Source of the DNA: Promethearchaeota archaeon
GTDB taxonomy: Archaea; Asgardarchaeota; Lokiarchaeia; Sigyniarchaeales; SOKP01
NCBI GenBank assembly: GCA_019058015.1
Contig: JAHLWH010000080.1
Location: 1-18,437, forward strand
DNA length: 18,437 nucleotides
Direction of reading: 5' to 3'
Shown here: positions 1 to 15,700 of the stretch, piece after piece
How positions within the stretch are numbered: position 1 is the stretch's first letter
Layout of the letters: every line of letters starts with the position of its first letter
Notes under the pieces: model-generated
The model's database searches: none
Seen by the model: only the letters and a program-made list of their open reading frames with translations
Told to the model about the DNA's origin: nothing
Position numbers and translations under genes: made by a program

Positions 1-979
1 CTGCAACTTTCTCACCTTCTTCAACATCTGATCCACCAACAAAATAAACGGTTGGAGCATTTGGTTTTCGTGAAAACATAGCATCTTGGACCAATCTAGC
101 GACTCTATCAGCCGTAATGTTGCAAAAAGGAATAACAACATTAAACCCTGCATCATAGGCCATATTAATATCAAAAGGTGATGCATATTCATCAGTATCA
201 AAAAAATACAAAATACTTTCCGCCTTCACTTTTTTCTTTATCTTTATCGGGATTATTTCGAGAACAGATGTATTTACTAATTCTTTTACCGAAGAAATAT
301 CATCATGAAAATCTTTAGCAACTTTTTTGATATTTATTTGTTCAATGTCAATTCCAAGATCTTCTGCTAAAGTCGAAATGCCATCAAAATGCCTTTTGTC
401 ACAAATAAATAATGCCTTCAAGTGTTTTTTCTCCATTTTTTTTCCTAATTCAAGAATTCCCATCATCATCCAAGATTCGCGGATTTTATATCTTATCTCA
501 TCTTCCTGCTTATTATATTCTTCGCGTAAATGTTCTCTCCACATCATTAATTGTTGATAATGTGGATCATTTGGATGAACTCCGCCTTTTTCTTTTAATT
601 CCCTAATCTCCGAAGTAAATTTCTCTATAAGTTCTTTACTACCATTCAATCCCGAGGAGATATAATTTAGAGCATTCTCAGGGATGCCTATCATTTTGTA
701 GGGTATCTCATTTTTTCTGAATAAATCTACAAATTCATCCTCATAAAGCAGCTTATCATTTGACCTCATCCCTTTATCCTCTACTACAAAATCAGGATTG
801 TATTTCTTCACCAAATTTTCAGTAAATTCCATATATTCCTTAGAAACAAAAAATATATTTGCAGCAATGGCTTCTTCCCCTGTCGGCTCTTCCAACGACC
901 AATCTATTGGAAATTCACTCTCAACTAATACTAACTTAAGAGTCTTATTTTTTAAAGGTTTTAATTCTAAAGATTGCAT
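1..979 (-). CDS. mtdB: Fusion protein, copy 2 (3' end truncated by the window edge): uncharacterised N-terminal domain plus MtdB-like NAD(P)-dependent methylene-H4MPT dehydrogenase
   Basis: Absent from the ORF track because it runs off the edge. Manual translation from ATG at 979 is open to position 1: MQSLELKPLKNKTLKLVLVESEFPIDW...GGVHPND...RESWMMMGI...FICDKRHFDGI...ILYFFDTDEYASPFDINMAYDAGFNVVIP...VQDAMFSRKP. Colinear paralog of 2664..4346. SD-like AGAGGTAA at 990-997. Confidence 0.88.
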   Translation of the reverse strand, partial: MQSLELKPLKNKTLKLVLVESEFPIDWSLEEPTGEEAIAANIFFVSKEYMEFTENLVKKYNPDFVVEDKGMRSNDKLLYEDEFVDLFRKNEIPYKMIGIPENALNYISSGLNGSKELIEKFTSEIRELKEKGGVHPNDPHYQQLMMWREHLREEYNKQEDEIRYKIRESWMMMGILELGKKMEKKHLKALFICDKRHFDGISTLAEDLGIDIEQINIKKVAKDFHDDISSVKELVNTSVLEIIPIKIKKKVKAESILYFFDTDEYASPFDINMAYDAGFNVVIPFCNITADRVARLVQDAMFSRKPNAPTVYFVGGSDVEEGEKVA

Positions 980-1003
980 TTTTTAAAAATTACCTCTTAT
1001 TTT

Positions 1004-1702
1004 TTAATTAATTTGTGTCGAATGCTGTTCTATTTTTTTTAAAATTTTATTTACATTTATTACTTCAATATTTATTCCTAAATCATCTGCTAGAGATTTT
1101 ATTCCATCAAAATGTTTTTTATCACAGATAAATATTGCTTTTAAATGCTTTTTCTCAATCTTCCTTGCTAAATCAAGAATCCCCATCATCATCCAAGATT
1201 CACGGACTTCATATCTTATCTCATCTTCTTGATTAGAATATTCGCCCTGTAAATAATCCCTCCACACAACCAATTGCTGAAGATTAAAATCGTTAGGATG
1301 AAAACCACCCTTCTCTTTCAAATTCTCAATTTCTGCTCTAATCTCTTTTAGAAGTCCTACATTTCTATCAATCGTTGAAGCAAGATAACCTAAAGCATTC
1401 TCGGAAATATCAACCATTTTATATCGAATGTTATATTCTCTGAATAAATCTACTAAAGCATCATCATATTGTAAATCATCACTTGAGCGCATTCCTTTCT
1501 CTTCCACTATAAAATCTGGTTTGTGATTTTTTACTATATCTTCAATAAACTGCAAATATTTCTTAGACATAATAAATAATTTTGCAGCAATAGATTCTTC
1601 CTTTGAAGATGCTTCCAATGACCAATCTATTGGAAATTCACTCTCTACTAATAACAATTTAAGAGTCTTATTTTTTAATCTTTCTAATTCTAATACTTGC
1701 AT
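1004..1702 (-). CDS. Stand-alone A-domain protein (paralog of the N-terminal domain of the Mtd fusions; possible TraB/TIKI/ChaN-like fold)
   Basis: 232 aa aligning end to end with the first ~220 aa of 2664..4346 (ESEFPI, KPDFIVEE, GGFHPND, RESWMMMGI, FICDKKHFDGI). SD GGAGGT at 1712-1717. Confidence 0.85.
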   Translation of the reverse strand: MQVLELERLKNKTLKLLLVESEFPIDWSLEASSKEESIAAKLFIMSKKYLQFIEDIVKNHKPDFIVEEKGMRSSDDLQYDDALVDLFREYNIRYKMVDISENALGYLASTIDRNVGLLKEIRAEIENLKEKGGFHPNDFNLQQLVVWRDYLQGEYSNQEDEIRYEVRESWMMMGILDLARKIEKKHLKAIFICDKKHFDGIKSLADDLGINIEVINVNKILKKIEQHSTQIN

Positions 1703-1720
1703 TTTTTACTTACCTCCTGT

Positions 1721-2350
1721 TTAAGTTAAAATTAAAATTGAATTTTTTTTCATAATTTTGTTTGTCTCAAGATTAATAACCTTGATATTTTGAGATTCAA
1801 ATAACTTTTTCAATTCAGAAAACAATTCTTTACGGGTAAAATGAATAATACTAATCTCATCGTCATTAATCATCTTAATTATATCTAATACCTTTTTTAT
1901 GATCCATAAAGGTGTTAGCTTTAAATCTAAATGATTTTCTTTGTCTTTTACTTCACTTTTTAAGAGATGAATCCATGAGTTCAGATTTTGAGTCTTTAAT
2001 GACTCTTTCTCGGCGGGATCTGAACAGAGTTTCTCATATTCTCCTTGTAATTCCTCAATTTGTTCTTTTTTTTCTGAGATTTCATTTAATAAATAAATTT
2101 TAGCGTAGTCAGGGATATTAACATAATAATATGGTATCCCAAAATTATCAAAAAATTGTGCTAAAGGAGTCAGGTAAATCTTTTTTAAATCATCATCACT
2201 TAAATCAATCGTAGCAAAATTGAATTTTTGTTTTCTTAAGAGAACCAATAAATTTTCATGTTCTGCGTCAGATAATTCTTTATTATCCTTTTCTATTAGA
2301 TATAAAGAAATTTTTTTATCTTTTATCGGTTTTAATTCCAATACTTCCAT
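1721..2350 (-). CDS. B-type hypothetical protein, copy 2 (divergent paralog of the A domain, with a coiled-coil insert)
   Basis: Start moved to ATG at 2350 (MEVLELKP) to match paralog 4360..5019 (MEVLEIEP); GGGTA lies just upstream. Shared motifs: FATIDL, IPDYAK, KESLKTQNLNSWI. Confidence 0.8.
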   Translation of the reverse strand: MEVLELKPIKDKKISLYLIEKDNKELSDAEHENLLVLLRKQKFNFATIDLSDDDLKKIYLTPLAQFFDNFGIPYYYVNIPDYAKIYLLNEISEKKEQIEELQGEYEKLCSDPAEKESLKTQNLNSWIHLLKSEVKDKENHLDLKLTPLWIIKKVLDIIKMINDDEISIIHFTRKELFSELKKLFESQNIKVINLETNKIMKKNSILILT

Positions 2351-2457
2351 TTTTTTTACCCATTCCAAATTTTTATATATTCTGAAATTTTTTTTTACTA
2401 TTTAATTGATTTAAATGCAATAATTTAATTTATTTGATAAGAGGAATTTTAGACAAC

Positions 2458-2604
2458 TTGACTAATTAATTTATCAACTTAACCATTTTTTTTATCAAAA
2501 ATTAAAAAATCTTCTTTTTAAAACTAATTATAAAATAAATATGACAAAAAAAGTTTGATAAAATTGACAATTTAAATAATCAAGCAAACAATTTTTTTTA
2601 TCAT
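2458..2604. promoter_or_regulatory. Four copies of a putative operator palindrome TTGAYAA-N6-TTRTCAA, arranged as two tandem pairs
   Basis: 2458-2477 TTGACTA-attaat-TTATCAA; 2479-2498 TTAACCA-tttttt-TTATCAA; 2564-2583 TTGACAA-tttaaa-TAATCAA; 2585-2604 CAAACAA-tttttt-TTATCAT (weak). Starts are 21 bp apart within each pair. Confidence 0.65.
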
Positions 2605-2630
2605 TAATTAAAATATGCTTTCTATTAATT

Positions 2631-2651
2631 AAAAATAAAATAAAAAAAAAA
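2631..2651 (-). terminator. Oligo-T archaeal-type terminator candidate downstream of mtd copy 1
   Basis: A-rich run on the plus strand (A10 at 2642-2651), i.e. a T-tract on the minus strand starting 12 nt after the stop at 2664. Confidence 0.5.
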
Positions 2652-2663
2652 GTGAGTTTGAAT

Positions 2664-4346
2664 TTAGTGAGATATTACAATTTTTTTGCCAAATAATATT
2701 TCTTTTGCAATTTCAAAAGCAATGTTATAATCGAATATTTTCTTTCCTTTGGTTTTAGTAGCTTCTCTAAGAATAGAACCTTCAGTTGTCGATTTTAAAT
2801 GGCCTATTCCTAATGCCCCAATTCCAAAAATTCCGGGGTAAATTTCTTCATTATCATGTTTTGGTTTTATACCTTCAATTCCGTACGGCGGAACTAAATT
2901 AATGTCTATTACGATTTTATTTTTTGGTAATTTGCTCATCAATTCTTCTGATAAGATTTGAACTCCTGCAGCTGCTAAAGACCAGATTATATCAGCATCT
3001 TTTACTATTTCAAATTTTTTCTCATCCGTTATTGCGAATTCTCCAATGATTTCAGAAGCGTTTTTTCCTGCCTCTTTAGTTAATTCTTTTGCAAGCTGCT
3101 TTACAGCTTTTTCACTTCCCTTATCCCATGTCTCAACTAAAACTGTTTCACAATTTTGTTTTGCCGCAATTATTGCTGCAATTCGCCCGACAGGGCCAGT
3201 TCCTAATACGACCGCTTTTTTTCCTGAGATATTACTTATCCCGCTTTTCATTGCCGCTTCCAGAGTTTTCGCGACTATTGCCGAAGCCGTAGTGTGAGAT
3301 CCTCGTGGATCTATGATCACAGGGACTTCGAAAGGTGGTACTAAGGAACCCACGACTTTTTTCGCAATTTTTTCACCTTCCGCTACATTCGCCCCACCAA
3401 TGAAAAAACTGGTCGGAGCTTTTGGCTTTCGCGAGAATATCGCATCTTGCACAAGTCTTGGCACTTGTTCAACCTTTACATTACTAACGGGAATAACTAC
3501 ATCAAACCCCGCATCGTATGCCATATTAATATCAAAGGGAGACGCATGCTCATCTGTATCTAAAAAATACACAATTTTTTCTAGACTATCTTTTTTCTTT
3601 ATTTTAACGGGAGCAACTTCCATAATTGATACCTTTACAAATTCTTTTATCGTATTTGGCTTCTCTAAATCTCCAATATTTAAAATATTTTTCTTAACTT
3701 CAAATTTTTGAATTTCTACTCCTAGGTCATCTGTAAGGGTTGTAATACCATCAAAATGCCTTTTATCACAAATAAATAGACATTTTAATTTTTTCTCTTT
3801 TTGTTCTTTTGCCATATCAAGAATCCCCATCATCATCCAAGCTTCACGGATCTTATATCTTATTTCTTCCTCTTGATTTTCGTATTCCACCTGTAAATAT
3901 TCTCTCCACGTTATTAATTGCTGAAAATAATAATCATTGGGATGAAACCCTCCCTTTTCTTTAATCTTTATAATTTCTGCTTTAATTCCCTTTAAAAGTT
4001 CCACGTTTTTGTCTATTGTCGAAGCAAGATATCCAAGTGCGTTCTCATTGATATCAACCATCTTATAAGGTATTTTAAAATCTCTAAATAAATCAACAAA
4101 AGCATCATCATAATGTAATTTATCACTAGAACGCAATCCTTGTTCTTCAACTACAAAATTTGGTTTATGTTTCCGTAATATATTTTCAATAAGTTTTAGA
4201 TAATCTTTTGACATAAAACTGAAATTTAAAGATTGTTCAAGCTGCTCTTTTGTTGGCTCCAACCACCAACCAATTGGAAACTCACTTTCTATTAATATTA
4301 TTTCTAATTTTTTATTTTTTAAAGGGTTTATTTCTAACACTTGCAA
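2664..4346 (-). CDS. mtdB: Fusion protein, copy 1: uncharacterised ~220-aa A domain plus MtdB-like NAD(P)-dependent methylene-tetrahydromethanopterin dehydrogenase
   Basis: The C-terminal ~300 aa carry Mtd motifs SPFDINMAYDAGF, QDAIFSR, FFIGG, LVPPF, DPRGSHTTASA, Rossmann GTGPVG, AAAGVQ and DINLVPPYGIEG. TTG start, with SD GGAGGT (4355-4360) overlapping the upstream TAG stop. Confidence 0.9.
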   Translation of the reverse strand: MQVLEINPLKNKKLEIILIESEFPIGWWLEPTKEQLEQSLNFSFMSKDYLKLIENILRKHKPNFVVEEQGLRSSDKLHYDDAFVDLFRDFKIPYKMVDINENALGYLASTIDKNVELLKGIKAEIIKIKEKGGFHPNDYYFQQLITWREYLQVEYENQEEEIRYKIREAWMMMGILDMAKEQKEKKLKCLFICDKRHFDGITTLTDDLGVEIQKFEVKKNILNIGDLEKPNTIKEFVKVSIMEVAPVKIKKKDSLEKIVYFLDTDEHASPFDINMAYDAGFDVVIPVSNVKVEQVPRLVQDAIFSRKPKAPTSFFIGGANVAEGEKIAKKVVGSLVPPFEVPVIIDPRGSHTTASAIVAKTLEAAMKSGISNISGKKAVVLGTGPVGRIAAIIAAKQNCETVLVETWDKGSEKAVKQLAKELTKEAGKNASEIIGEFAITDEKKFEIVKDADIIWSLAAAGVQILSEELMSKLPKNKIVIDINLVPPYGIEGIKPKHDNEEIYPGIFGIGALGIGHLKSTTEGSILREATKTKGKKIFDYNIAFEIAKEILFGKKIVISH

Positions 4347-4359
4347 TTTTTTTTACCTC

Positions 4360-5019
4360 CTATTTTATGATTTGATTTGAAATTATTACTTTATTCTTAG
4401 CATCAAAAGTTCGATCTGAAACTCCAGTGCTAAAATTATTTATAATAACATTTATTTTGAGTTCTTGAAACAATTTTTGTAATTCAGGAACTAATTCTTC
4501 TGGACTAAAATGTAAAATAATTAAGGAATTTTTCTTATAAGTTCTTGCCCTGTCCAATATTTTTTTAACGATCCATTGAGGCTTAACTTTTAATTTTATA
4601 TATTGTTCTTTATCATTAACTTCCTCTTTTAATAAATCAATCCAAGATTTTAAATTTTGCCCCTTAAATGATTCTTTTCCAGAGGGATCATTGGATAAAC
4701 TTTCATATTCTGATTCTAATTCCTTAATTTGTTCTTTTTTATCGGATATTTCTCCCAATAAATAACCTTTTGCGTATTCGGGAATGTCAATACCGATAAA
4801 TTCGATTGAAAAATCTTCTAAAAATTTCGCTATGGGTGAATTATTTAATTGTTTTAAATTTTTACCCAATAAGTCAATAGTAGCAAAATCAAATGTATAA
4901 TTTTTTAAAAAGTTCTCGAAAATTTTTGCTTTTACGTGCGATATTTTATAATCTTCTTTCTCTATTATATAAAGAAAAATTTTTTTATTTTTTACCGGCT
5001 CGATTTCTAAAACTTCCAT
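4360..5019 (-). CDS. B-type hypothetical protein, copy 1
   Basis: 219 aa, colinear paralog of 1721..2350. Its stop codon overlaps the SD of the downstream mtd fusion (TAGGAGGT), suggesting translational coupling. Confidence 0.82.
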   Translation of the reverse strand: MEVLEIEPVKNKKIFLYIIEKEDYKISHVKAKIFENFLKNYTFDFATIDLLGKNLKQLNNSPIAKFLEDFSIEFIGIDIPEYAKGYLLGEISDKKEQIKELESEYESLSNDPSGKESFKGQNLKSWIDLLKEEVNDKEQYIKLKVKPQWIVKKILDRARTYKKNSLIILHFSPEELVPELQKLFQELKINVIINNFSTGVSDRTFDAKNKVIISNQIIK

Positions 5020-5107
5020 TTAGTCAAGGACCGTTTGTTTAATTATTTAATTATTTTTTATTTTTTATTTTACCCAGTAATTCACCTTAATAATAAATAA
5101 AAATAAT

Positions 5108-5180
5108 TTGATAAAAAGAGTTATCTCTATTTTAACAACTAATATTGTCAAAATATAGAATTGACAATTTCCATTATCAT
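5108..5180. promoter_or_regulatory. Three copies of the putative operator palindrome TTGAYAA-N6-TTRTCAA
   Basis: 5108-5127 TTGATAA-aaagag-TTATCTC; 5132-5151 TTAACAA-ctaata-TTGTCAA; 5161-5180 TTGACAA-tttcca-TTATCAT. Confidence 0.65.
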
Positions 5181-5394
5181 AAGTGATTTATCAACTTATC
5201 TTTATTTTAGCAAGTTATATCTAAAAAGAATTGAAATACATCTTTTTTTCTTTCATTTTTATGTGGTTTTAAAGAAAAAAATTGTCTTTTTAATAACTTG
5301 AATTTTCTTTTTTTTTTTTTAACTAATTTTATTTTCAGTTTTAAAATGAGAATAATTACATTTTGAAGATTTTTGATCAGTAAGATTTTTATTT

Positions 5395-5414
5395 TTGATA
5401 ACTTTATTTGTCAT
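5395..5414. promoter_or_regulatory. Putative operator palindrome upstream of the wHTH-hdrA gene
   Basis: TTGATAA-ctttat-TTGTCAT, ending 110 bp before the ATG at 5525. Confidence 0.6.
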
Positions 5415-5524
5415 AGTGAAAATCATAATTATTTTTTTTAATAATATTTATTTTCGGTTTTCGACAAAGAATTATAATTTTCCAGATAATGATTTGTAAA
5501 AATAATTAAAGGGAGATTAGAAAT

Positions 5525-8056
5525 ATGGATATATATTCAATTTTATCTCATCCATTTAGGAGGAAGATTTTATTACTTCTTGATAAAGAAGGTTATATCT
5601 CTTACACAGAATTGATGGATAGGTTAGGTTTAGAGACTACTGGGCAATTAAATTTTCACCTTAAAAAACTTGGGACTTTAATAAATAAAGATAAAAAATC
5701 CTATTTTCTCACGGAGGACGGAAAACGAGTTATAAATTTAATGAATATTGATAAAAAAATTTTGGCAGGTGAGGATATTGAATATTTGGATAAGGTTGGT
5801 AGTGAGATTAATCGAGTGGGGGTTATTATTTGTAAATGCAATACTGAAATTTCTAATCTTATAAGTATTAATGCACTTGAAAATTATATTAAAAGAATTC
5901 CCAATGTAGTTGCTGTGAAGATTTTTGATAATCTTTGCCAAGAGAAAAATTTAGAAAAGATTACTAAATGGTCTAAAGATAATTATTTGAATAAGATTGT
6001 TATTGCTGCGTGTTCTCCAAAAACTCATTTGCATATATTTGAAAGAATTTTTGATGGAGTTATTGATAAAGTTAATATTGAAATTGCTAATATTAGGGAG
6101 CAATGTTGCTGGGTGCATCTAAAAGAACCTACTTTAGCGTTAAAAAAAGCGCAAATTTTGATTGAGGCAGCGGTTGAACGAGTTGCGCTTCAAAAAGATG
6201 TTCAAGTAAAAACTGTTAAAATTGAAAAAAGTTGTGCCATTTTAGGTGGTGGAATTGCTGGAATGACACTTGCATTGAATTTATCAAGAGCAGGAATTAA
6301 AGTCTATTTAATTGAAAAAACTCCAACATTAGGTGGTAAAATTGCCAGGTGGAGTAAAATTTATGGAATGGGTGATTGTTCAATTTGTCTTATGTCAGAA
6401 ATGATAGGTGAGGTTGTTAAAGAAAAAAATATCGAAATTTTAACTAATACTGAAATAGAAAAAGTATCAGGTGAAGTAGGAAATTTTTCAATTGATTTGG
6501 TTAAAAAACCCCGATATGTTGATGAAAAGAAATGTACTGGATGTAAAAGATGTATTGAAATTTGCAGTATAGAAAAAAGTAATCAATATGAATTTGGATT
6601 AACAGCAAGGAAGTTAATTTATATTCCTTATGTTCAATCTTATCCATATGCTCCAGTGATTGACCAAGAAGATATTGAAACTTGCCGACAATGTAGAATT
6701 TGCGAGCGAGCTTGCAATAATAATGCGATTGATTTGGATCAGAAATTTGAAAAAATAAGGATTAGAGTTGGAACAAAAGTAATTGCAATTGGTGCGGATT
6801 TTTATTCTGAATTAAAACCTTATAACCATAATCCACAAAATGACGTAATTATATCTCCGGAATTTGAACGTATCTTATCAGCGGATGGTCCAACGGAAGG
6901 TAAAATTTTGAAATTATCTGATGGAAAACCACCGAAATCAATCTCAATAATTCAAGGTTTAGGTCCATTTGATTATTTAGCGGAATATTGTGGTACTCTC
7001 GCCATAAAGTATTTAGAATCTATTTATTCACAACTTCCTGATTGTAAAATTAACATATTTTTTGATTTAAATAAAATTAAGAAATCTACTGGATTTATGT
7101 TAGATCCATCTGATGAAAGATTTCATTATTATGAAAATATTGAAATCATAGAGAAAGGAAATAAGAAAATAATAATTTCTGATTCAGAGCAGTATCCCTC
7201 CGATATGATCGTGTTAAATGTCAATTTTGTTCCAAATAAAGATTTAAAAGAACTTCGAAAGACTTTAGATTTTACATTAGACGATCATGGTTTTATGAGT
7301 GAGGAAACGCTGGCATCCGGTATTTTTGGTGTTGGTTCAATTAAAGGTCCATTAGATTATAATTCAGTGATCTCATCTTCCAATGATGTAGCTATTAAAA
7401 TTATTTCATTGTTATCAAATGATTATTTAATTACAGAATTTAGCGGTATCGAAATCAAAGAAGAGAATTGCGGATTGTGTGGTTTATGCATATTATCTTG
7501 TCCTTACAATGCAATCACAATTGAGGCAGATAAAATTGCGATTGATAAATTCAAATGTAAAGGATGCGGAACGTGTGTAAGTGTTTGTCCCACAAATGCA
7601 CTTGACTTAAACATTGATACTACTGAGAAGATACTAAAATCAATTGAGGTATTTTCTAAATTCAATTTACGACCAAAAATAATTGCATTCTGCTGTCGTT
7701 CTTGTGGATATGGTGCAGCCGATGAAGCTGGCTTAAAGAAACTTTCCTATAATCCCAACATCTTTATTATTAAAGTTCCATGCACAGGGCGGGTAGATAC
7801 GAGTTTAATTTTTAAATCTTTCGAATTAGGATTTGATGGAGTAATGATTATTGGTTGCAGAAAAGATTCCTGCCGATATATAAATAGTGTAGATCAAGTA
7901 AGACAAAAAGTTAAACTTTTAAAAGAAGTTTTAGGTCCTATTGCTGAAAATCGAATAATTCGTAAATCATTAAGCGCAGTTGAGGGCAATAAATTTGCAG
8001 AGATTGTAAATTCTTTTTATGAAAGATTATCAGAGGAGATTAAAAATGAAACCTAA
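5525..8056 (+). CDS. hdrA: Winged-HTH / HdrA / MvhD triple fusion protein
   Basis: aa 1-75 form an ArsR-like archaeal wHTH (LSHPFRRKILLLL...SYTELM...TGQLNFHLKKL...YFLTEDG). HdrA motifs: RVGVIICKC, AACSP, NIREQCCWVH, GGGIAG, EKTPTLGG, DCSIC, KKPRYVD, four ferredoxin-type CxxCxxCxxxC motifs, EFER. C-terminal MvhD motifs: FCCRSCGYGAAD, VPCTGRVD, GCRKDSCRY. SD GGGAG at 5511. Confidence 0.92.
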   Translation: MDIYSILSHPFRRKILLLLDKEGYISYTELMDRLGLETTGQLNFHLKKLGTLINKDKKSYFLTEDGKRVINLMNIDKKILAGEDIEYLDKVGSEINRVGVIICKCNTEISNLISINALENYIKRIPNVVAVKIFDNLCQEKNLEKITKWSKDNYLNKIVIAACSPKTHLHIFERIFDGVIDKVNIEIANIREQCCWVHLKEPTLALKKAQILIEAAVERVALQKDVQVKTVKIEKSCAILGGGIAGMTLALNLSRAGIKVYLIEKTPTLGGKIARWSKIYGMGDCSICLMSEMIGEVVKEKNIEILTNTEIEKVSGEVGNFSIDLVKKPRYVDEKKCTGCKRCIEICSIEKSNQYEFGLTARKLIYIPYVQSYPYAPVIDQEDIETCRQCRICERACNNNAIDLDQKFEKIRIRVGTKVIAIGADFYSELKPYNHNPQNDVIISPEFERILSADGPTEGKILKLSDGKPPKSISIIQGLGPFDYLAEYCGTLAIKYLESIYSQLPDCKINIFFDLNKIKKSTGFMLDPSDERFHYYENIEIIEKGNKKIIISDSEQYPSDMIVLNVNFVPNKDLKELRKTLDFTLDDHGFMSEETLASGIFGVGSIKGPLDYNSVISSSNDVAIKIISLLSNDYLITEFSGIEIKEENCGLCGLCILSCPYNAITIEADKIAIDKFKCKGCGTCVSVCPTNALDLNIDTTEKILKSIEVFSKFNLRPKIIAFCCRSCGYGAADEAGLKKLSYNPNIFIIKVPCTGRVDTSLIFKSFELGFDGVMIIGCRKDSCRYINSVDQVRQKVKLLKEVLGPIAENRIIRKSLSAVEGNKFAEIVNSFYERLSEEIKNET

Positions 8057-8807
8057 TTTCTTAATCGAATCATTGACTTCTTGTAGTGGTTGTATCTCAA
8101 CAATGATTTCATTAGATATTTTTCCTCAATTTCTTGATAAGGTAAATCTCGTTCGTTGTTCATTTATGAGAGATGAAAATAATATCTCTGAAAATGATAT
8201 CGCTTTAATTGAGGGATGTGTTTCAGAGGAAAAACAAATCGATATTCTTAAAAATATTCGGAGTAAATCCAAGAGAGTAATTGCTTTAGGAACTTGTGCT
8301 GCTTTTGGTGGAATGCTTGCACTTTCCACTGTAAAAGAAGCAGAACCCATATCCAATTATATAGAAGTAGATGGAATAATTCCTGGATGTCCACCACCTT
8401 CTAAATTATTAGGCAATTGTATTATTAGACTGCTAGAAAATAAAGAGATTATTTTGCCTGAAAAAAATGTTTGTGCAGATTGCGAATTTAGAACTGATAA
8501 TATTGAAAGCAAATTTATGAAACGAATTAATAAACTAATGCCTAGAGAGTATAACTTAGATATCGAAAATAAAGATAAACGTTGCTTTTTAGAAAGAGGA
8601 ATTTTATGTTTGGGACCAATAACTAGAGATGGTTGTGAATCTAAGTGCATTAAATTGAACCTTCCTTGTGATGGGTGCATGGGACCAATTAAAAACGATT
8701 TTACCTCTAATGCCATTAATTTTTTGAGCACTGTAAATCTTGCCAAAGGTCTAAGGAAATATAAAGGAATTTTCTATCGTTATTCAAAACCAAAAACCAA
8801 GAGGTAA
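8046..8807 (+). CDS. mvhG: Group 3 [NiFe]-hydrogenase small subunit (MvhG-like)
   Basis: Motifs SCSGC, IEGCV, ALGTCAAFGG, IPGCPP, VCADC, CFL..GILCLGPITRDGC..KC....PCDGCMGP. Start moved to ATG 8046 (SD GAGGAG at 8033-8038), overlapping the hdrA stop. Confidence 0.9.
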   Translation: MKPNFLIESLTSCSGCISTMISLDIFPQFLDKVNLVRCSFMRDENNISENDIALIEGCVSEEKQIDILKNIRSKSKRVIALGTCAAFGGMLALSTVKEAEPISNYIEVDGIIPGCPPPSKLLGNCIIRLLENKEIILPEKNVCADCEFRTDNIESKFMKRINKLMPREYNLDIENKDKRCFLERGILCLGPITRDGCESKCIKLNLPCDGCMGPIKNDFTSNAINFLSTVNLAKGLRKYKGIFYRYSKPKTKR

Positions 8808-8813
8808 AAAATT

Positions 8814-10118
8814 ATGAAGAAAGTAGTTGATGTATGCACCCGGGTTGAAGGACATGGAAATATAAAAATTTTACTTCAGAAAGATGAAATTACAAGTGTG
8901 AATTTTGATCTTGAGATATTTCGAGCGTTTGAAAATTTATTACTTGATAAGAGGTTGATTGATGTTCCTAGAATTGCATCAAGAATATGTGGATTGTGTC
9001 ACGCATCACAGACAATAACTAGTTGTAAAGCAATAGAGAGTATGTATGAAGTCGAACCCTCCAATCAATCAGTTCTTTTGAGACGACTATTAATGATTGG
9101 TGAGTTGATAAAATCTCATTCTATGCATTTCTTTTTTCAAGCATTTCCCGACCTTTTTGTAATTTTGGATAAACAACCAAAACCACTCTCACTGAATGAA
9201 TTAATCCATTTTGATCCTAAATTAACTTCAAATATGTATGAATTAATAAAAATCGGCAATGAAATTGTGAATTTATTTGGTGGAAGATCTGTTCATTTAA
9301 TAACACCCATTATCGGTGGTGTTTTTTTTTCTCTATCCAAAAAAGAAATAAATATTGCACGGAAATATCTGCAAAATTCTATAAATAATTTAAAATGGAT
9401 TATTGAGCGATTCCAAGAGATATTTTCTCAATTTGATCCTCCTGATGTTTATTCCTTACCAAATCCTGCTTATATGGGAATGCATAATGATGAGAAATAT
9501 GACCGGTATAATGGACTCTTACGATTAGCACAAAATAATAAAATTATCGCAGATTTTCCCGTATATAAACATTCGCAATATTTTGATAAGCAGGAGGATA
9601 TACGTGGAATTGATTTCTATTTAAAAAACGACCAAAACATTCTTGTTGGCCCACTCGCACGATATAAAATAATTAATGATTATGGAATAGATGAACTGCA
9701 ATCCTATATTGGACTTTTTAATAAAGAATGGCAAAATAGTATTTTATTCTCAAACGTTATCAGGCTAATAGAAATGATGTTTGTTTCTTACGAAGGGTTA
9801 TCAATTCTAGACGATACTGAATTGACACAAAAAAATGAAATTAATCCTATTAATTTTTTAAGAAATAATGAAGGACTCGGCATGGTTGAAGCACCTCGAG
9901 GAACTCTCATACACTATTATCATGTAAATAAAAAGAGATTAATTGATAAAGTGAAGCTTTTTATTGCAACTGAAATTAATTTGCCAATTATTGATGAAAT
10001 CCTAACAACACAAAGCCAAAAATTGTATGAAAGAACTGGTGATTTTAATCAGATAAAAAAACAAGCGCAAATGATTATAAGATCGTTTGACCCCTGTATC
10101 TCTTGCGCAACTCATTAA
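8814..10118 (+). CDS. mvhA: Group 3 [NiFe]-hydrogenase large subunit (MvhA-like) with sensory-type features
   Basis: Motifs TRVEGHG, L1 RICGLCHASQ, SHSMHFFF, GGRSVH, VGPLAR, EAPRGTLIH, and L2 RSFDPCISCATH followed directly by the stop. SD GAGGT overlaps the mvhG stop. Confidence 0.92.
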   Translation: MKKVVDVCTRVEGHGNIKILLQKDEITSVNFDLEIFRAFENLLLDKRLIDVPRIASRICGLCHASQTITSCKAIESMYEVEPSNQSVLLRRLLMIGELIKSHSMHFFFQAFPDLFVILDKQPKPLSLNELIHFDPKLTSNMYELIKIGNEIVNLFGGRSVHLITPIIGGVFFSLSKKEINIARKYLQNSINNLKWIIERFQEIFSQFDPPDVYSLPNPAYMGMHNDEKYDRYNGLLRLAQNNKIIADFPVYKHSQYFDKQEDIRGIDFYLKNDQNILVGPLARYKIINDYGIDELQSYIGLFNKEWQNSILFSNVIRLIEMMFVSYEGLSILDDTELTQKNEINPINFLRNNEGLGMVEAPRGTLIHYYHVNKKRLIDKVKLFIATEINLPIIDEILTTQSQKLYERTGDFNQIKKQAQMIIRSFDPCISCATH

Positions 10119-10289
10119 ATTTATTTTTAAGTATAGAATATACTATTCTCTTATAATTAAGAAATGACAAATTATTTTTTGTTTATTTTTAAGCAATTTG
10201 GAAAAGAAGAATATCGTGCTAAAAAGCATATTAAATCAATTAGGATTAGAGAATTTTATCATAGGAATTATGCTGATTGAGGTAAGCTT

Positions 10290-10997
10290 ATGGTTGGATT
10301 AAAAACTAAAATTTCTAAAGAAAAATTAAGACTTCTTATCATATTTATTCTGTTATCTGCTTCACTTTTTTTACAATATTATTTTCAATTTATTCTAAAA
10401 ATAAGCATTATTTTTTCCCATTTCTTTTATATCCCTATTATTTTTGCATGTCTTTGGTGGAAAAACAAAGGCTTGGTTGTACCAATCTTTCTCTCTGGAT
10501 TACTCATTTTCTTTCCCATTTTAAGTGGATTGGATATGTTTTTTAATAATCTTATTGAAAATATTTTTCGAGCTGTCTTAATTTTATTTATTGGTATTGT
10601 AGTTGTCATTTTAAGCAAGCAAATCTTAAAGGCAGAAAATAAATTAAAAGAACGAGTTAAGGAACTTAATTGTTTATATAATATTATTGAATTGATTAAA
10701 AATCCAAACATATCAATTGAAGAAATTCTATTAGAAACTCAAAAGCAAATTCAAAATGCCTGGAAATTTCCGGATATGATATGTTCAAAAATAGTTTTTG
10801 ATAAAAAAGAATATTTAACAGACAACTATAAAAAAACCCCTTGGAAATTAACAGTTAAAAATTTAATAAAGGATAAGGAATTAAGTATTTCTGTACATTA
10901 TCTCAAGGAAAAACCCTTCCTTGAAGAAGAAAAGAATTTATTAGAGAAAATTGCTGAACAGTTAAAAGCTATTTTTGAATTTAAGTTATTAATGTAA
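10290..10997 (+). CDS. Membrane sensor-like protein: ~4 TM helices, a coiled coil and a GAF-like domain, with no output domain
   Basis: Hydrophobic N-terminal half with SHFFYIPII..C.WW. KERVKELNCLY...AWKFPDMICSKI...PFLEEEKNLL resembles a module recalled from PAS/histidine-kinase proteins. SD GAGGT at 10279-10283. Confidence 0.65.
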   Translation: MVGLKTKISKEKLRLLIIFILLSASLFLQYYFQFILKISIIFSHFFYIPIIFACLWWKNKGLVVPIFLSGLLIFFPILSGLDMFFNNLIENIFRAVLILFIGIVVVILSKQILKAENKLKERVKELNCLYNIIELIKNPNISIEEILLETQKQIQNAWKFPDMICSKIVFDKKEYLTDNYKKTPWKLTVKNLIKDKELSISVHYLKEKPFLEEEKNLLEKIAEQLKAIFEFKLLM

Positions 10998-11069
10998 TTT
11001 TCTTTGAGATTAAATTTATTAATCTTTAAAATAAAACCAAAAAAAATAGCTAATAATAAAGTTTGGTAA

Positions 11070-13319
11070 TTATTCCTCCTCTTCCTTAAATATTTCCTCT
11101 ACTTTATCGTTAGAATCTCTGAAAGGATGTAGAGCTCCTGACCAATCTAAAAGATGAGGTCTATGCTTTTCCTCAAACCATTCAACAAATTCTTTTAAAA
11201 GACTACGGTCTTCTAATGATTGTTTTCCTTTTACAAATAATGCTGAGAAAATATACTGCCCATATTCAATCAAAATTTTAATATCTCCATGGTCAATCGT
11301 CTTAAGCAATTCTGAACTCTTTGTTGTCTCTTTAATAAAAGCGGTAATGGCCGTAAACATTCCAGCAATTAAACCAGAATCCGCATAATCTACACCTTTG
11401 AAGTTGTAACTGAATATATCGCGTCCATCAGAGTAAATTACATATAATCCTTGCAGCTCGACTTTTTCATATTCATATGTGAATTCTGGAATCCAAAAAG
11501 AGATTTTTCCATTATAAAATAGATATTTTAAAGTAAAATAAAATCTCCGCATTTCTTCCTTCTCTATTGGTCTAATTTCTTTCAAAAATTTATTGTTCTT
11601 GATCTTTTCTAACAATTCTTTAACTTCTTCTCTTTCTTCAATTTTTTCTTCCTTAACTTCTGATTCAGGAGTTTTAACCACTAAATATCGATAGAGATCC
11701 GTGCGGTATGCCTCATATTTTGGAAATTCGGAAGTTCTTGAAAAAGATATCTTTTCAACTATTTTTTCTCCCTTAAGAACATTTTTAACAATAAAGATTT
11801 TATTTAAATAATATAAAATTAATCCCCAGATTAAGAGATTAAAAACATAGCGTGTATAAGTGAATGGAATCGCTATAATTTCTAATAATGGAAATTCACC
11901 TAGGTTGACTTTAAACAATACAGTCCTTATTGTGTAAATATCTTTATCAAATAATGAAAAATAAGCTGATGCACCAGTAATCCAATAATCTTCCGGAGCA
12001 AAATTGATTGGGGGGTAAAAACCTACAAACCTAATTAATATTGAGATTAAAATGACAATCCCTAGAAAGATAAAAGATGTTATGGCTATCTTTTTTATAA
12101 ATTGCATACTTCTCGCGAAAAGATATGCAAAAAGGATAACAGAAAAAATTAAAATAAATGTATTTATGATATTAAATAGATCCAATCTTAACGCATCTTC
12201 TAAAAATATAATATTTCCATAAGTAATATCAGCTTTTAATAGTAGTTCGTCAAAATATTCTTGACTTATAATTATTCCTATCTGTATTGGATTAATTAAA
12301 AATTGGTAAATAATAAGAAAAATAAGACAGCCTCCTACTCCAATAACTAAAGGAATATACCAATTTGTCCAATCTATCTTTCTTTTCTTTGTTTTTGCTT
12401 TTTTCCATAAATCAACTAACTTTATAAAAATTAAAATAGCAATAGGTTGAAAAATTTTATGGAATAAAATAAATATTCCAGCACCCATCATAAAATATGC
12501 GAAGAAATAAAGTATGAAAACGTAATTTGTAGTAGGATCCGCTAAAAATAATAAAATACTTAAAAGGGATATTGGAGTTCCTACTTGAAACAAACTTCTA
12601 AATGTATCTTCTCTCAATTTTTCTCCAATATATGCTCCTTTAAAGGAAATTTTACTACTATACACCAAGTGAATCCCAACTAATAGTGTAGCAATATATA
12701 CAAATAAAATTTCCACAAACCATCCCATAGTTGTTTCCCCAGTGGTTAAATCAATACTCTCTAAACCTAAAAGTTCGATTATGACGGATAATAAGTATAG
12801 AGATATTGGCAAAAGAACAATTAATAATTTTAAGAGTTGTTTTTCTTCCGACCAATCACCTTTTATTAGTCCCTCTTTTATCATATCAGAAGGACTTTTT
12901 TTAAATTCAAAAGTTAGATCGGCAAGTTTATCCCTCATAGCTCCCGGTTCTTTTCGTAATTTTCTCCATAATATAAGAAACGATAAAAATGGTCCCACCA
13001 GAAAGATAAATGTCAAAGTTGCAAAAGGATATTGCAAAAAATAACCAATTAGAGATATCATGTGAGAAAATATAAAAAAAAACGCTAAAAATATATTTCC
13101 TTGCTCTTCAGGATGTAATTGAAGCTCCTTAGGATCAATGTCTGTTTGAAACATAATTGGTAAAATCCAATATACTAGAAAGAAGATAACAATTCCTAAG
13201 AAGACTCTTAAATATAATTTTCCAATTAATCTTTTATAAATAAAAGGAATTGGAATTGCCAAAAAAATGATTGGTAGCCCATTTAATAACAATAAATAAA
13301 ATATTTCTATCGTTTCCAT
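11070..13319 (-). CDS. Polytopic membrane protein with a C-terminal Asgard longin-like domain
   Basis: More than 10 hydrophobic segments in the first ~510 aa. The C-terminal ~130 aa (GLYVIYSDGRDIF...DSGLIAGMFTAITAFIKE...IDHGDIKILIEYG...FVEWFEEKH...WSG) match the longin/profilin-like fold pattern common in Asgard proteins. Confidence 0.75.
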   Translation of the reverse strand: METIEIFYLLLLNGLPIIFLAIPIPFIYKRLIGKLYLRVFLGIVIFFLVYWILPIMFQTDIDPKELQLHPEEQGNIFLAFFFIFSHMISLIGYFLQYPFATLTFIFLVGPFLSFLILWRKLRKEPGAMRDKLADLTFEFKKSPSDMIKEGLIKGDWSEEKQLLKLLIVLLPISLYLLSVIIELLGLESIDLTTGETTMGWFVEILFVYIATLLVGIHLVYSSKISFKGAYIGEKLREDTFRSLFQVGTPISLLSILLFLADPTTNYVFILYFFAYFMMGAGIFILFHKIFQPIAILIFIKLVDLWKKAKTKKRKIDWTNWYIPLVIGVGGCLIFLIIYQFLINPIQIGIIISQEYFDELLLKADITYGNIIFLEDALRLDLFNIINTFILIFSVILFAYLFARSMQFIKKIAITSFIFLGIVILISILIRFVGFYPPINFAPEDYWITGASAYFSLFDKDIYTIRTVLFKVNLGEFPLLEIIAIPFTYTRYVFNLLIWGLILYYLNKIFIVKNVLKGEKIVEKISFSRTSEFPKYEAYRTDLYRYLVVKTPESEVKEEKIEEREEVKELLEKIKNNKFLKEIRPIEKEEMRRFYFTLKYLFYNGKISFWIPEFTYEYEKVELQGLYVIYSDGRDIFSYNFKGVDYADSGLIAGMFTAITAFIKETTKSSELLKTIDHGDIKILIEYGQYIFSALFVKGKQSLEDRSLLKEFVEWFEEKHRPHLLDWSGALHPFRDSNDKVEEIFKEEEE

Positions 13320-13378
13320 TTATAATACCTTATTTTTTATATTAAATTAATTATAATATACGTTAATTATTTACGTGA

Positions 13379-13389
13379 TTATATAAATA
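13379..13389 (+). promoter_or_regulatory. TATA-box candidate in the 85-bp divergent intergenic region
   Basis: TTATATAAATA about 20-25 nt upstream of ATG 13405, with no SD motif; compatible with a leaderless transcript. The AT-rich background weakens this call. Confidence 0.35.
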
Positions 13390-13404
13390 TTTGCTGATAA
13401 TTGG

Positions 13405-14502
13405 ATGAATAACATAGGAATAATCTCAGATAAAGACTTTGAAATGTTAAATGAACCACCTTTTCCCCGACCTTATTTTGAAGCTTTTGAAACACCTTTA
13501 AGAATTAAATGCATTAAGGATTACTTTGAAAAAGAGAAATTATTTGAAGATAATAGGATAAAAAAGATTCCAATAAGAAATCTCGAAAAGATTGAGACAA
13601 TTCTTGAATTAGTTCATACTAAATACCATGTTGATTCAATAAAATATTTTTCAAATTTAGCTTCTGGAAGTGTTGGTGAAACTGTATTCATTACTGAAGA
13701 GACATTTAAATTAGCAAAAAAGGCAATTGAAGGAACAATTACTGCTTTTAATTCCGTCATATCTGGAGAAGTTAATCAATCATTTGCTTTCATAAGACCC
13801 CCGGGTCATCATGCACTAAGAGATGTAGCTTCAGGTCTGTGTATTTTTAATAATATCGCAGTAGGTATTCAATATTTAAGAAAAATAAAAAAAAATGCGA
13901 AAAAATTCGCCATTATTGATATAGATAATCATTATGGAGATGGAATCGCCAAATTTTTTTATGAAGACCCAGAGGTCCTTTATTTTTCAATTCATGAGTA
14001 TGATTTTGATCAAGGGGAACTGGGTTTTATTCATGAGCTTGGAAATAATGAAGGTTTAGGCTATAACATTAATTTTCCAATACCTCCCAAAACTACTGAT
14101 AAGTATTATTTAGAGTTTTTTGATATTTTAGAGGCAGTGTTTTCAGAATTTAAACCTGAAATAATAATTGTTGCCTGCGGATTTGATTGTCACTACACCG
14201 ATCCCATCGGAAATTGTTTGCTTACAGCGAATTCCTACATCAAATTTACTCAAAAATTATTAATACTCGCAAATAATGTATGTAATGGGAAGATCTCATT
14301 TATCCTCGAAGGAGGATATAGCTTAAGTGCATTACCAATATGTTCTTACTCTATAGTTAAAACACTACTAGGTGATATGGTTAATCTACCTTCTCAAGAA
14401 AAAATAGAATTTCCCGAGGATTTAGATATCTCAAAAGTAATTGCTAAAGTAAAAGGGGAATTAAATAATCTATTAAGAGATTATTGGTCAAATATTTCCT
14501 AG
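13405..14502 (+). CDS. Zn-dependent histone deacetylase family protein (HDAC/AcuC/AphA)
   Basis: Motifs RPPGHHA, GLCIFNN, IIDIDNHYGDG, SIH, GFDCHYTDP and LEGGY. The catalytic His pair, Zn ligands and Tyr are all present. Confidence 0.93.
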   Translation: MNNIGIISDKDFEMLNEPPFPRPYFEAFETPLRIKCIKDYFEKEKLFEDNRIKKIPIRNLEKIETILELVHTKYHVDSIKYFSNLASGSVGETVFITEETFKLAKKAIEGTITAFNSVISGEVNQSFAFIRPPGHHALRDVASGLCIFNNIAVGIQYLRKIKKNAKKFAIIDIDNHYGDGIAKFFYEDPEVLYFSIHEYDFDQGELGFIHELGNNEGLGYNINFPIPPKTTDKYYLEFFDILEAVFSEFKPEIIIVACGFDCHYTDPIGNCLLTANSYIKFTQKLLILANNVCNGKISFILEGGYSLSALPICSYSIVKTLLGDMVNLPSQEKIEFPEDLDISKVIAKVKGELNNLLRDYWSNIS

Positions 14503-14584
14503 CACCTATTGATAAAAATAAGAAATTGTAATGCATTGCATCAACTTAATAAAATGAAAAAAATAAAAATAAAATTTTTATTCT

Positions 14585-14971
14585 TTACAATTTCCTTTTT
14601 AATTTTTTTGTATATTCTTGCACGTTAAATAACGCATCACGAGGACCGGCTTGAGGACTAATATAACACATTAATGCAGCGTTGTTATCACCTGTTGGGC
14701 AAATTATAATATGCCCCTTTCCTTTAATATTAGTTGCGATTTTTCGTTCAGGAGTATTCTCAACAACCATAAAATTAATCCCCTGTAATGAAATTCTTCC
14801 AACTCCACTTGTGGCTTGAATTAAGTTCAATATACCCGATAAATCTTGTGATAAATCCCAGTTCTCCGTTTGAAAACTTATTTGATTATTACTACCAATT
14901 AAAGCTACCCCTATTACATTTGGTTCTTCATTTAATAAGTCACTTATAATAGTACTAATCTCACTAGGCAA
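14585..14971 (-). CDS. Asgard (Loki-type) profilin
   Basis: 128 aa with QTENWD, ISLQGINFMVVENTPERKIATNIKGKGH and P.AGPRDALFNVQEY, closely matching Lokiarchaeota profilins as recalled. TTG start. Confidence 0.85.
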   Translation of the reverse strand: MPSEISTIISDLLNEEPNVIGVALIGSNNQISFQTENWDLSQDLSGILNLIQATSGVGRISLQGINFMVVENTPERKIATNIKGKGHIIICPTGDNNAALMCYISPQAGPRDALFNVQEYTKKLKRKL

Positions 14972-15154
14972 TACATCTCAACCCTTTTGAATTTTTCTAT
15001 TAATGAATATTGATAACTAAAAATTATTTTAAAACTCTTTTATTACCTATTGCTTAAATATATAAAATACATCATTCTTTAATTTAATATATTCAAAAAT
15101 ATATAGGAACCAACACTAAAGAAAAATAATTCATAAAATTTTTAAGTGACTATT

Positions 15155-15700
15155 ATGGCTTTACGATTGTGGAAAAAGGCAGTTGTCCTTACTCTTCGAA
15201 GTAAAAGAAGGTTTACTGTCTTTACGTTAATGTATACGGGACTAATTATTTGGTCTTCATTTTCATTAGATTTAACTCCGTCCTTGGGAGACATTGGACT
15301 TACCTCATTTTTTATTGCAATGGGCATCTCAATATTCCTATCGCTTTTATATGCCTGGATAATTACGAATTATAGAAGACGTGAAATAGCTACACTCAAA
15401 TGCATTGGTTGGACCAATAAAAATTGTCAAGCGATCATTATAGGCGAAATTCTATTTACTACATTAAGTGGATTTATTATCGTGATTGAAATTTTATTTC
15501 ACATAGTAGCATTTTTAGGATATTTCCATTCTGCATATAATCCCACTTTTGCTGCATCAGGATTACCTTTAATCTCTCTCAGTTCTGTGTTTGTTACATT
15601 TATCTTATTCATTTTAGTTCAATTAATTGGTATCTTTTTAGGCACAAGGAGAGTTTTAAAGGTCAGACCTATAATAGCTTTAAGGAAGGTAGGAACTTAA
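15155..15700 (+). CDS. Small FtsX/MacB-family ABC permease
   Basis: RRREIATLKCIGW...IIIGE motif, C-terminal P(I)IALR and about four TM helices. ATG 15155 is preferred over GTG 15146. Confidence 0.8.
   Translation: MALRLWKKAVVLTLRSKRRFTVFTLMYTGLIIWSSFSLDLTPSLGDIGLTSFFIAMGISIFLSLLYAWIITNYRRREIATLKCIGWTNKNCQAIIIGEILFTTLSGFIIVIEILFHIVAFLGYFHSAYNPTFAASGLPLISLSSVFVTFILFILVQLIGIFLGTRRVLKVRPIIALRKVGT

Follow-up and report, generated by a model that had tools for sequence, protein, structure and literature searches.

A rare, conserved palindrome ahead of a winged-helix HdrA-MvhD fusion gene suggests that an Asgard archaeal enzyme may switch its own operon on and off

Introduction

Flavin-based electron bifurcation is built around HdrA, and models of Asgard syntrophy and eukaryogenesis give H2 metabolism a central place. 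Why, then, does an HdrA of an Asgard archaeon begin with a domain that resembles a transcriptional repressor? The question arises from a contig of a Promethearchaeota archaeon (GenBank assembly GCA_019058015.1, contig JAHLWH010000080.1, positions 1 to 18,437, forward strand), which we analyzed over its whole stretch of 18,437 nucleotides (nt), here called the window. One open reading frame (ORF) of 843 amino acids (aa), at 5525..8056 on the + strand, joins a winged helix-turn-helix (wHTH) domain, a linker, HdrA, and MvhD in a single polypeptide, as defined by the ORF list and domain searches. The original prediction, made from the sequence of the window, held that a transcription factor domain on HdrA was not previously known, and we likewise found no paper describing a wHTH on HdrA in the literature searched, a search that did not extend to supplementary files, which possibly contain domain tables.

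Here, we report that the fusion is real, conserved, and old, and that a rare palindromic sequence is conserved at its locus. This palindrome, ahead of the gene, suggests that the operon may be turned on and off by the very enzyme it encodes. The new elements are the predicted ArsR-like homodimer of the wHTH and the rare conserved dyad upstream.

Results

Architecture and distribution of the fusion

The frame at 5525..8056 (+) is uninterrupted from the wHTH through MvhD. An in-frame stop lies 15 nt 5' of its ATG, and GGGAG occupies positions 5511-5515, which is 10-14 nt ahead of the ATG. The ArsR/SmtB-type winged helix comprises aa 1-80 (5525..5764, +) and was identified as Pfam DUF7347, by PDB sequence search, in structure models, and with Foldseek. 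It contains the predicted recognition helix, placed by ortholog alignment and models at aa 39-48 (T39-G40-x-L42-N43-x-H45-L46-K47-K48; 5639..5668, +). The linker, aa 81-96 (5765..5812, +), is marked by low model confidence and the lowest conservation of all segments. It leads into the HdrA core of aa 97-710 (5813..7654, +), delimited by Pfam, alignments to solved chains, and the ortholog alignment, in which an N-terminal Fe-S domain is followed by a flavin adenine dinucleotide (FAD)/thioredoxin-reductase-like domain and by inserted and C-terminal ferredoxin domains. The MvhD (FlpD) domain closes the chain at aa 716-836 (7670..8032, +); the Pfam FlpD/MvhD match spans aa 719-836, and solved MvhD chains cover aa 716-835.

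Profile searches agree with this division. Scanned alone, aa 1-90 match PF24038 (DUF7347) over aa 2-72 with 50.7 bits against a cut-off of 27.6. The N-terminal domain also matches the Pfam family HTH_24 (26.8 bits versus a cut-off of 21.9) and, at 23.8 bits, does not reach the Pfam cut-off of 27 for HTH_20. The alignments to the solved HdrA chains 8rvu_a, 5odc_A, 7bkb_A, and 9sfi_A all begin at query aa 94-97, and aa 1-93 therefore constitute an extension over structurally known HdrAs. The match to 8rvu_a runs over aa 94-709 with an E value of 5.9e-118. An uninterrupted junction between the wHTH and the HdrA N-terminal domain, with the motif RVGVIICKC near aa 97, had been read from the sequence at the outset, and the motif indeed occupies aa 97-105 of the single 843-aa frame.

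The best NCBIfam model for the remainder is HdrA2 (NF040770), with aa 97-837 aligned to profile positions 1-770 of 777 at 591 bits. None of the NCBIfam HdrA2/HdrA cut-offs is reached, as the scores are 591 versus 1100 (NF040770), 436 versus 1300, and 388 versus 1400. By sequence, the HdrA-MvhD part thus falls into a distinct HdrA-like clade below these cut-offs, and a function as reductase of CoM-S-S-CoB, the heterodisulfide of coenzymes M and B, is therefore not implied. The Cys ligands of the HdrA clusters and the FAD motif (GGGxAG, G241-G246) are nevertheless invariant in the 44 aligned sequences. With both kept, the HdrA part has the appearance of a functional enzyme and not of a degenerate sensor. 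The HdrA-MvhD part is complete and probably catalytically competent.

We assessed the reality of the junction by comparing contigs from other studies. Contig X8 record 15 spans 5096-7164 without a gap, contig X10 record 3 spans 5622-6050, and contig X6 records 10-12 together tile 5449-8100. The contigs of these three other studies cross the junction with substitutions only, showing neither indels nor joints, which excludes a misassembly. A further run, X20, initially taken for RNA, yielded a single contig of 179 nt and is probably DNA.

The fusion is also widespread. PF24038 is present in 117 of the best 120 database homologs, which are 65-93% identical and 816-862 aa long; the other three, at 818-819 aa, lack about 25 residues at one end. 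Asgard names are attached to the closest database proteins: Promethearchaeota, Lokiarchaeota, Helarchaeota, Hodarchaeota, Thorarchaeota, Hermodarchaeota, and Odinarchaeota. A search of 400 genomes of the phylum with aa 1-230 as the query, with rows counted by hand, recovered a single frame of about 850 aa matching both the wHTH and the HdrA N-terminal domain in 118 genomes. Two further genomes carry a fusion interrupted by a contig end or a frameshift, for a total of 120 of the 400. The carriers belong to 9 of 33 families and include 91 of the 135 genomes of the window's own family, with identity declining to 41%. Complete genomes without the fusion exist as well (e.g., G233 and G117). Public annotations of the homologs read "hydrogenase iron-sulfur subunit," "FAD-dependent oxidoreductase," or "heterodisulfide reductase subunit A," and current annotation thus hides the DNA-binding domain.

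Five fusion-free genomes were searched for the separate parts. None contains a stand-alone ortholog of the wHTH (best matches, 25-38% identity), and the cassette is likewise absent, the best MvhA match being 25-29% identical. The wHTH, the divergent hydrogenase, and the dyad described below thus travel together.

Translation must begin at the wHTH, because an in-frame stop precedes the aligned start by 0-54 nt in many orthologs, and no internal start is conserved, M73 included. An internal start yielding HdrA alone was rejected for the latter reason. Several orthologs lack a canonical start codon at the aligned first residue: three loci have ATA (L008, L012, and L024), two have ACG (L014 and L036), and L015 has none of ATG, GTG, or TTG. 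These orthologs retain an in-frame stop 0-54 nt upstream and a GGAGG-like motif in front, and the sequences suggest that rare initiator codons (ATA, ACG, and ATT) are used in these Asgard genomes.

A few forms are broken. One 2967-nt contig (G155:C223, locus L052) carries an 81-aa wHTH ORF followed by an 802-aa frame with a TAA, and three short database proteins (P0122, P0124, and P0130) end in out-of-frame tails. Split and frameshifted forms of this kind are probably sequencing errors; the G155:C223 type could conceivably be a true split form.

The winged-helix domain

We modeled the full-length protein with AlphaFold2 from a 44-sequence alignment, which gave a predicted local distance difference test (pLDDT) score of 85.9. 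The wHTH is modeled with helices at residues 3-7, 10-22, 27-34, and 39-48, a hairpin of strands at 53-56 and 59-62, and a long helix at 64-80. Linker residues 84-93 fall below a pLDDT of 50, and the first HdrA strand starts at residue 98. The fold is unchanged when the wHTH is modeled alone (pLDDT, 85.5). Apart from the MotA activation domain at rank 20, every Foldseek match listed against the PDB is a wHTH transcriptional regulator. ArsR/SmtB-family repressors top these matches, led by CadC (1u2w; E value, 7.4e-4; template modeling [TM] score, 0.66); RHA1 ArsR, SrnR, Rv0081, BigR, PagR, NolR, HlyU, and SmtB follow with TM scores of 0.6-0.7. In the sequence search of solved chains, a putative archaeal ArsR came closest (1y0u; E value, 0.001), and the HLKKL stretch aligns with ArsR 6j0e. 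The predicted fold and the Pfam match together assign the N-terminal domain to the ArsR/SmtB-like wHTH clan. The first 75 or so residues had originally been taken for an archaeal ArsR-like wHTH at 5525-5760 (aa 1-79); this span coincides with the folded winged helix, and the DUF7347 and HTH_24 scores above cut-off, the 1y0u match, and the Foldseek results bear the assignment out.

Two copies of aa 1-96 are predicted to form a homodimer, with interaction prediction scores from aligned errors (ipSAE) of 0.61/0.61/0.60 against 0.01 for the best control. The ipSAE mark is reached by 20 of 30 proteins solved as one-chain pairs and by 1 of 23 solved as single chains. The partner pLDDT is 85, and contacts agree to at least 79% between runs. 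The predicted interface is made of residues 1-8, 13, and 68-85, which are the first and last helices, as in ArsR/SmtB dimers, and it leaves helix 39-48 and the wing free. Since ArsR dimers have already been solved, this pass may reflect likeness only.

The wHTH is at least as conserved as the catalytic domains, as judged from the alignment, and is under selection. Mean identity to the window sequence is 69% for the wHTH, 61-64% for the catalytic domains, and 54% for the linker; among the 13 most distant rows, the values are 51%, 47-49%, and 26%, respectively. Seven recognition-helix and wing residues (R12, G40, H45, K55, Y60, L62, and G66) are invariant in 44 sequences, and T39, N43, and L46 are conserved at 90% or more. 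The invariant and near-invariant positions cluster in the recognition helix (T39, G40, L42, N43, H45, L46, K47, and K48) and in the wing (K55, Y60, L62, T63, and G66). Residues 1-80 contain no Cys, and their only His residues are H9 and H45.

Other DUF7347 proteins are present in the same genome. Contig C224 encodes a 289-aa paralog (G000:C224, locus L002 1459..2328) with an N-terminal wHTH that is 40% identical over aa 3-73 and a hydrophobic C-terminal part that appears membrane-spanning by eye, and C259 encodes a second paralog of 102 aa. Neither was accepted as an ortholog, as identity to the query is at most 40%. The best 150 wHTH relatives are mostly 120-350 aa long and carry the domain at the N terminus.

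A candidate operator ahead of the gene

A comparison of 160-250 nt upstream of the gene in 50 related loci led to a refined dyad consensus, TGAYAA-N6-TTRTCA. Its proximal exact copy in the window, TGATAA-N6-TTGTCA, lies at 5396..5413 and was identified as the candidate operator by genome scan and conservation. It is positioned 129 nt ahead of the hdrA ATG and directly 3' of a TATA-like T/A run at 5386-5395. An operator between the TATA box and the expected start site is the typical position of archaeal repressors. A second exact copy, TGACAA-N6-TTATCA, was found by genome scan at 5162..5179, 142 nt upstream of the divergent gene 4360..5019. The same scan located two one-mismatch dyads in the intergenic region 5020-5524 (5109-5126 and 5133-5150) and two upstream of the gene at 1721..2368 on the - strand (2459-2476 and 2565-2582). 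A sigma-70 promoter scan of 5000-5600 was discarded as not meaningful for an archaeon.

The dyad is rare, and it is concentrated at this locus. The host genome (3.84 Mb, 29.4% G+C) contains only seven exact copies, two of them within the 505-nt stretch between genes at 5020-5524. One-mismatch copies in non-coding DNA number 28 genome-wide, and six of these are on this contig, including those at 5109, 5133, 2459, 2565, and 741. In the window, nine sites with at most one mismatch occur versus 0.63 expected, a number reached by none of 200 shuffles. We also counted every palindromic 4-mer dyad (4352 in all) in 25 dereplicated upstream regions and compared the counts with the genome's non-coding DNA. 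The highest-ranked dyad is ACAA-N6-TTGT (4 sequences versus 0.1 expected; p, 3.6e-6), followed by TTGA-N12-TCAA (5 versus 0.38 expected; p, 3.3e-5). Both are parts of TGAYAA-N6-TTRTCA in the same register; after correction for 4352 tests, a value below 0.05 holds for ACAA-N6-TTGT alone.

The site is also conserved across loci. With at most one mismatch, it is found 50-500 nt upstream in 31 of the 50 related loci, only at -1320 to -1350 in nine, and only just past mvhA in two; eight loci have none. Five fusion carriers from four families have 6, 5, 1, 2, and 2 exact copies genome-wide (sum, 16), versus 3, 1, 1, 0, and 1 for the reversed-pattern control (sum, 6), and one exact copy is at the hdrA locus in all five. 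Five fusion-free genomes have 0, 1, 1, 4, and 2 exact copies (sum, 8) versus 1, 5, 1, 6, and 3 for the control (sum, 16). In an alignment of four genomes of the genus, no invariant intergenic block is longer than the one that holds the proximal dyad and the TATA-like run at 5386-5395. Within the genus, the proximal dyad shows two substitutions, which affect a spacer base and the degenerate R position, and the distal dyads are lost in the most divergent of the four genomes. At several loci of genus g11, the dyad directly follows TTTATATA. In family f28, the region at about -120 to -90 of three loci (L039-L041) shows by eye a direct repeat, GAYAA-N12-(G/A)AYAA, instead of the inverted dyad, which may be a rearranged operator.

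We considered a wider regulon from the other exact dyads and rejected it. Of the 13 off-locus sites in genomes G000, G184, G260, G094, and G377, nine are inside ORFs, and the intergenic ones adjoin unrelated genes (AbiEii, MFS, TFIIB, and unknowns).

Neighboring genes and the cassette

The fusion gene is followed by genes for an MvhG/VhuG-like [NiFe]-hydrogenase small subunit (8019..8807, +) and an MvhA/VhuA-like large subunit (8814..10118, +), both assigned by Pfam and NCBIfam. As listed, the mvhG ORF overlaps the end of hdrA-mvhD by 38 nt (8019..8056); a later ATG (M10 of the listed translation) would shorten this overlap. On the opposite strand, 2664..4346 encodes a 560-aa Mpt_N-domain protein of the NAD(P)-dependent methylene-tetrahydromethanopterin (H4MPT) dehydrogenase family (Pfam; atlas match, 0.98). 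It belongs to a divergent unit that starts, next to the dyad-rich region, with a 219-aa protein (4360..5019, -) taken from the ORF list and without a family match in Pfam or NCBIfam. In the window and in families f21 and f4, the Mpt_N gene is located upstream in divergent orientation; it immediately follows mvhA in f31 and f19, with a dyad directly in front. It is a putative member of the regulon. Five families have the gene for the 560-aa protein as a conserved neighbor of the cassette, and this HdrA may have the protein as its terminal partner. A second Mpt_N-domain paralog of the same dehydrogenase family is located at 2..979 (-).

Five loci forming part of genus g11 (L018, L021, L022, L029, and L032) have an FrhB/FdhB-like gene at -1266 to -87 of hdrA. 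Its product is about 383 aa (294 aa in L022), with CxxCxxC motifs and the stretches GTDGG and ADISFGG. The operon there would be frhB-like, wHTH-hdrA-mvhD, mvhG, and mvhA. Because the FrhB-like gene fills the gap in these five loci, the ones translated of the nine with a site only at -1320 to -1350, that site again precedes the first operon gene.

Pfam, NCBIfam, and PDB sequence searches recognized no other DNA-binding protein among the conserved neighbors, and they returned no match for 4360..5019, 1721..2368, or 1004..1702. Among the window ORFs scanned, to which this search was limited, Pfam found no HdrB or HdrC family. Farther downstream, a 749-aa ORF (11070..13319, -) has no Pfam or NCBIfam match, and a gene of the histone-deacetylase family is located at 13405..14502 (+; PF00850, 245 bits).

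Discussion

What might a wHTH do on HdrA? The balance tips slightly, in our judgment, toward a bifunctional protein of the PutA/BirA kind, an enzyme that is also the autorepressor of the hdrA-mvhGA operon and of the neighboring methylene-H4MPT-dehydrogenase-family gene. The HdrA-MvhD part would be the flavin and iron-sulfur core that partners the MvhG/MvhA [NiFe]-hydrogenase encoded just downstream, with the ArsR/SmtB-type wHTH flexibly tethered at the HdrA N terminus. HdrA is dimeric in solved complexes. Two wHTH domains would pair through their first and last helices, aided by the HdrA dimer, and the pair would present two recognition helices to TGAYAA-N6-TTRTCA beside the TATA-like element. 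Binding to the dyad would repress the hdrA-mvhGA operon and the Mpt_N gene. Like PutA and BirA, the enzyme would thereby set the level of its own production, along with that of its probable metabolic partner. HdrA dimerization had initially been proposed to provide the two-fold symmetry for a palindromic operator; the rare conserved dyad agrees with the palindromic half of this proposal, and the symmetry could also arise without HdrA, as the wHTH is predicted to dimerize alone and is attached by a linker of low model confidence.

Which signal could govern such a repressor? The usual sensor sites of ArsR/SmtB proteins are Cys- or His-rich metal or thiol sites. Since the wHTH has none of these, any signal must come from elsewhere, and this, together with the analogy with PutA, leads us to propose that the redox or assembly state of the enzyme body controls binding. 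In a more specific version, the MvhAG-HdrA-MvhD assembly would be a one-piece hydrogen- or redox-sensing transcription factor in which H2 gates the hydrogenase operon and the C1-carrier dehydrogenase gene. The redox state of the HdrA flavin and Fe-S clusters, set by the attached [NiFe]-hydrogenase, would alter the pairing of the wHTH domains or their reach across the dyad. We regard this sensor version as unlikely. If true, the lineage closest to eukaryotes would have, in a single archaeal complex, a counterpart of both PutA and the bacterial regulatory hydrogenase pathway.

Several observations weigh against an autorepressing enzyme. DNA binding, the transcription start, and repression are all steps that we infer. 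The dyad was first spotted by eye in the same upstream regions from which its consensus was refined; of the tests on it, only the enumeration of dyads and the genome-wide counts do not depend on that choice. No upstream site with at most one mismatch is found in three of the nine fusion families (f4, f28, and f2; L036-L041 and L051). The metal or thiol sensor site typical of ArsR/SmtB proteins was not found in the sequence of aa 1-80. Fusion-free genomes lack the whole cassette, and a natural comparison with the enzyme without its wHTH therefore does not exist. Finally, dyads also occur upstream of metV. An exact copy lies 119 nt upstream of a metV-metF pair in genome G260 (L067/L073, G260:C2), and sites with at most one mismatch within 400 nt upstream of metV are present in 7 of 30 family genomes; of these seven, four are among the 16 fusion carriers and three among the 14 genomes lacking the fusion. 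Because the metV sites occur in the absence of the fusion, another factor or a compositional effect can produce such dyads. Their frequency is well above the non-coding background of genome G000 and independent of the presence of the fusion; in G000 itself, the closest metF is at a contig end, and its upstream region is missing. We rejected metVF as a conserved target, as the site frequencies with and without the fusion are similar.

The metV sites in fusion-free genomes bear on the strongest competing explanation, in which the wHTH is a structural or docking module without a DNA role and the dyad is the operator of a separate regulator. The docking partner could be the Mpt_N-family dehydrogenase, the FrhB-like subunit, or HdrBC. 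A wHTH in an HdrA-type complex can be purely structural: the wHTH of BamF, an MvhD-like adaptor, is reported to contact BamI (10.64898/2026.04.10.717634). The conserved partner genes and the flexible linker, as expected of a recruiting arm, also fit such a role. A docking module would not account as readily for a fold that is matched by wHTH regulators with a single exception among the listed hits, ArsR/SmtB dimeric repressors first, or for a predicted self-dimer that uses the ArsR interface and exposes the recognition helix. The strongest conservation is in the recognition helix and the wing, precisely the surfaces that the predicted dimer leaves free. Moreover, the dyad is almost confined to the cassette, with 1-6 exact copies per carrier genome and one at the locus in each of the five, and Pfam, NCBIfam, and PDB sequence searches recognized no other regulator in the conserved neighborhood. 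We consider this explanation possible though rather improbable.

We have stronger doubts about a third explanation, in which the domain binds nucleic acid without specific autorepression, as a nucleoid tether, at other targets or on RNA, or as an activator. The ArsR-like fold and the basic residues K47, K48, and K55 fit a general affinity for DNA, and the three fusion-bearing families without the dyad fit a lack of specificity. However, a specific dyad is strictly conserved at the locus across four families, and, where visible, it adjoins the TATA-like run, the usual position for an archaeal repressor. An artifact, in which a small regulator gene became joined to hdrA through misassembly, loss of a stop, or incorrect gene calling, could draw on the few split and fragmentary forms (G155:C223 and P0122, P0124, and P0130) and is effectively refuted by the 118 full-span and two partial fusions in 400 genomes, by PF24038 in 117 of the best 120 homologs with the other three about 25 aa shorter, by the contigs of three other studies that cross the junction without indels, and by the lack of a stand-alone ortholog in the five fusion-free genomes searched.

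An HdrA with a repressor-type domain and a candidate operator, both conserved, would be the first module of electron bifurcation that also acts as a transcription factor, and it makes directly testable how Asgard archaea sense H2 or redox state. The analysis also flags a distinct cassette that comprises wHTH-HdrA-MvhD, a divergent MvhGA, a methylene-H4MPT-dehydrogenase-family protein, and sometimes an FrhB-like subunit.

How does this protein compare with known systems? PutA of enteric bacteria is both the flavoenzyme of proline utilization and an autorepressor, for which DNA binding and a flavin-redox switch have been shown experimentally. Both proteins carry an N-terminal DNA-binding domain on a flavin-dependent redox enzyme in one polypeptide. 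The operator of PutA lies in its own, divergently organized control region, and PutA is our working model for a redox-gated switch. PutA differs in having a ribbon-helix-helix domain instead of a wHTH and an unrelated enzyme, and binding and switching are inferred for the protein described here. BirA, the biotin ligase and repressor, and NadR have an N-terminal (w)HTH fused to an enzyme and regulate the operon of their own pathway. The fusion resembles them as an enzyme with a built-in N-terminal DNA-binding domain, and it thus combines DNA-binding and catalytic domains in one polypeptide as proteins of the PutA/BirA type do; however, the switch of BirA and NadR is the formation of a small-molecule corepressor, and no such ligand is evident here.

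The wHTH shares its fold and helix order with the ArsR/SmtB repressors (CadC 1u2w, SmtB 8qkf, NolR 4omz, HlyU 4k2e, and the putative ArsR 1y0u). These repressors are about 100 aa long, stand alone, and bear metal or thiol sensor sites, whereas here a Cys-free domain is attached to an enzyme of 750 aa. Methanosarcina HdrA2 (NF040770) likewise has HdrA followed by MvhD in one chain; in contrast, its profile includes no N-terminal wHTH, and in the window, mvhG and mvhA follow the gene. BamF, the adaptor of the class II benzoyl-CoA reductase, is also reported to have a wHTH, in its case within an MvhD-type component of an HdrA-like electron-bifurcating complex (10.64898/2026.04.10.717634). Its wHTH forms the BamI interface in an MvhD-like subunit, whereas the one reported here belongs to the ArsR type, sits at the N terminus of HdrA, and has a conserved dyad upstream of its gene. 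A precedent for a regulator dedicated to a heterodisulfide reductase operon is reported for Methanosarcina barkeri, namely HdrR (PMC11218639). As a separate protein, HdrR differs from the arrangement in these Asgard archaea, where the predicted DNA-binding domain is part of HdrA itself.

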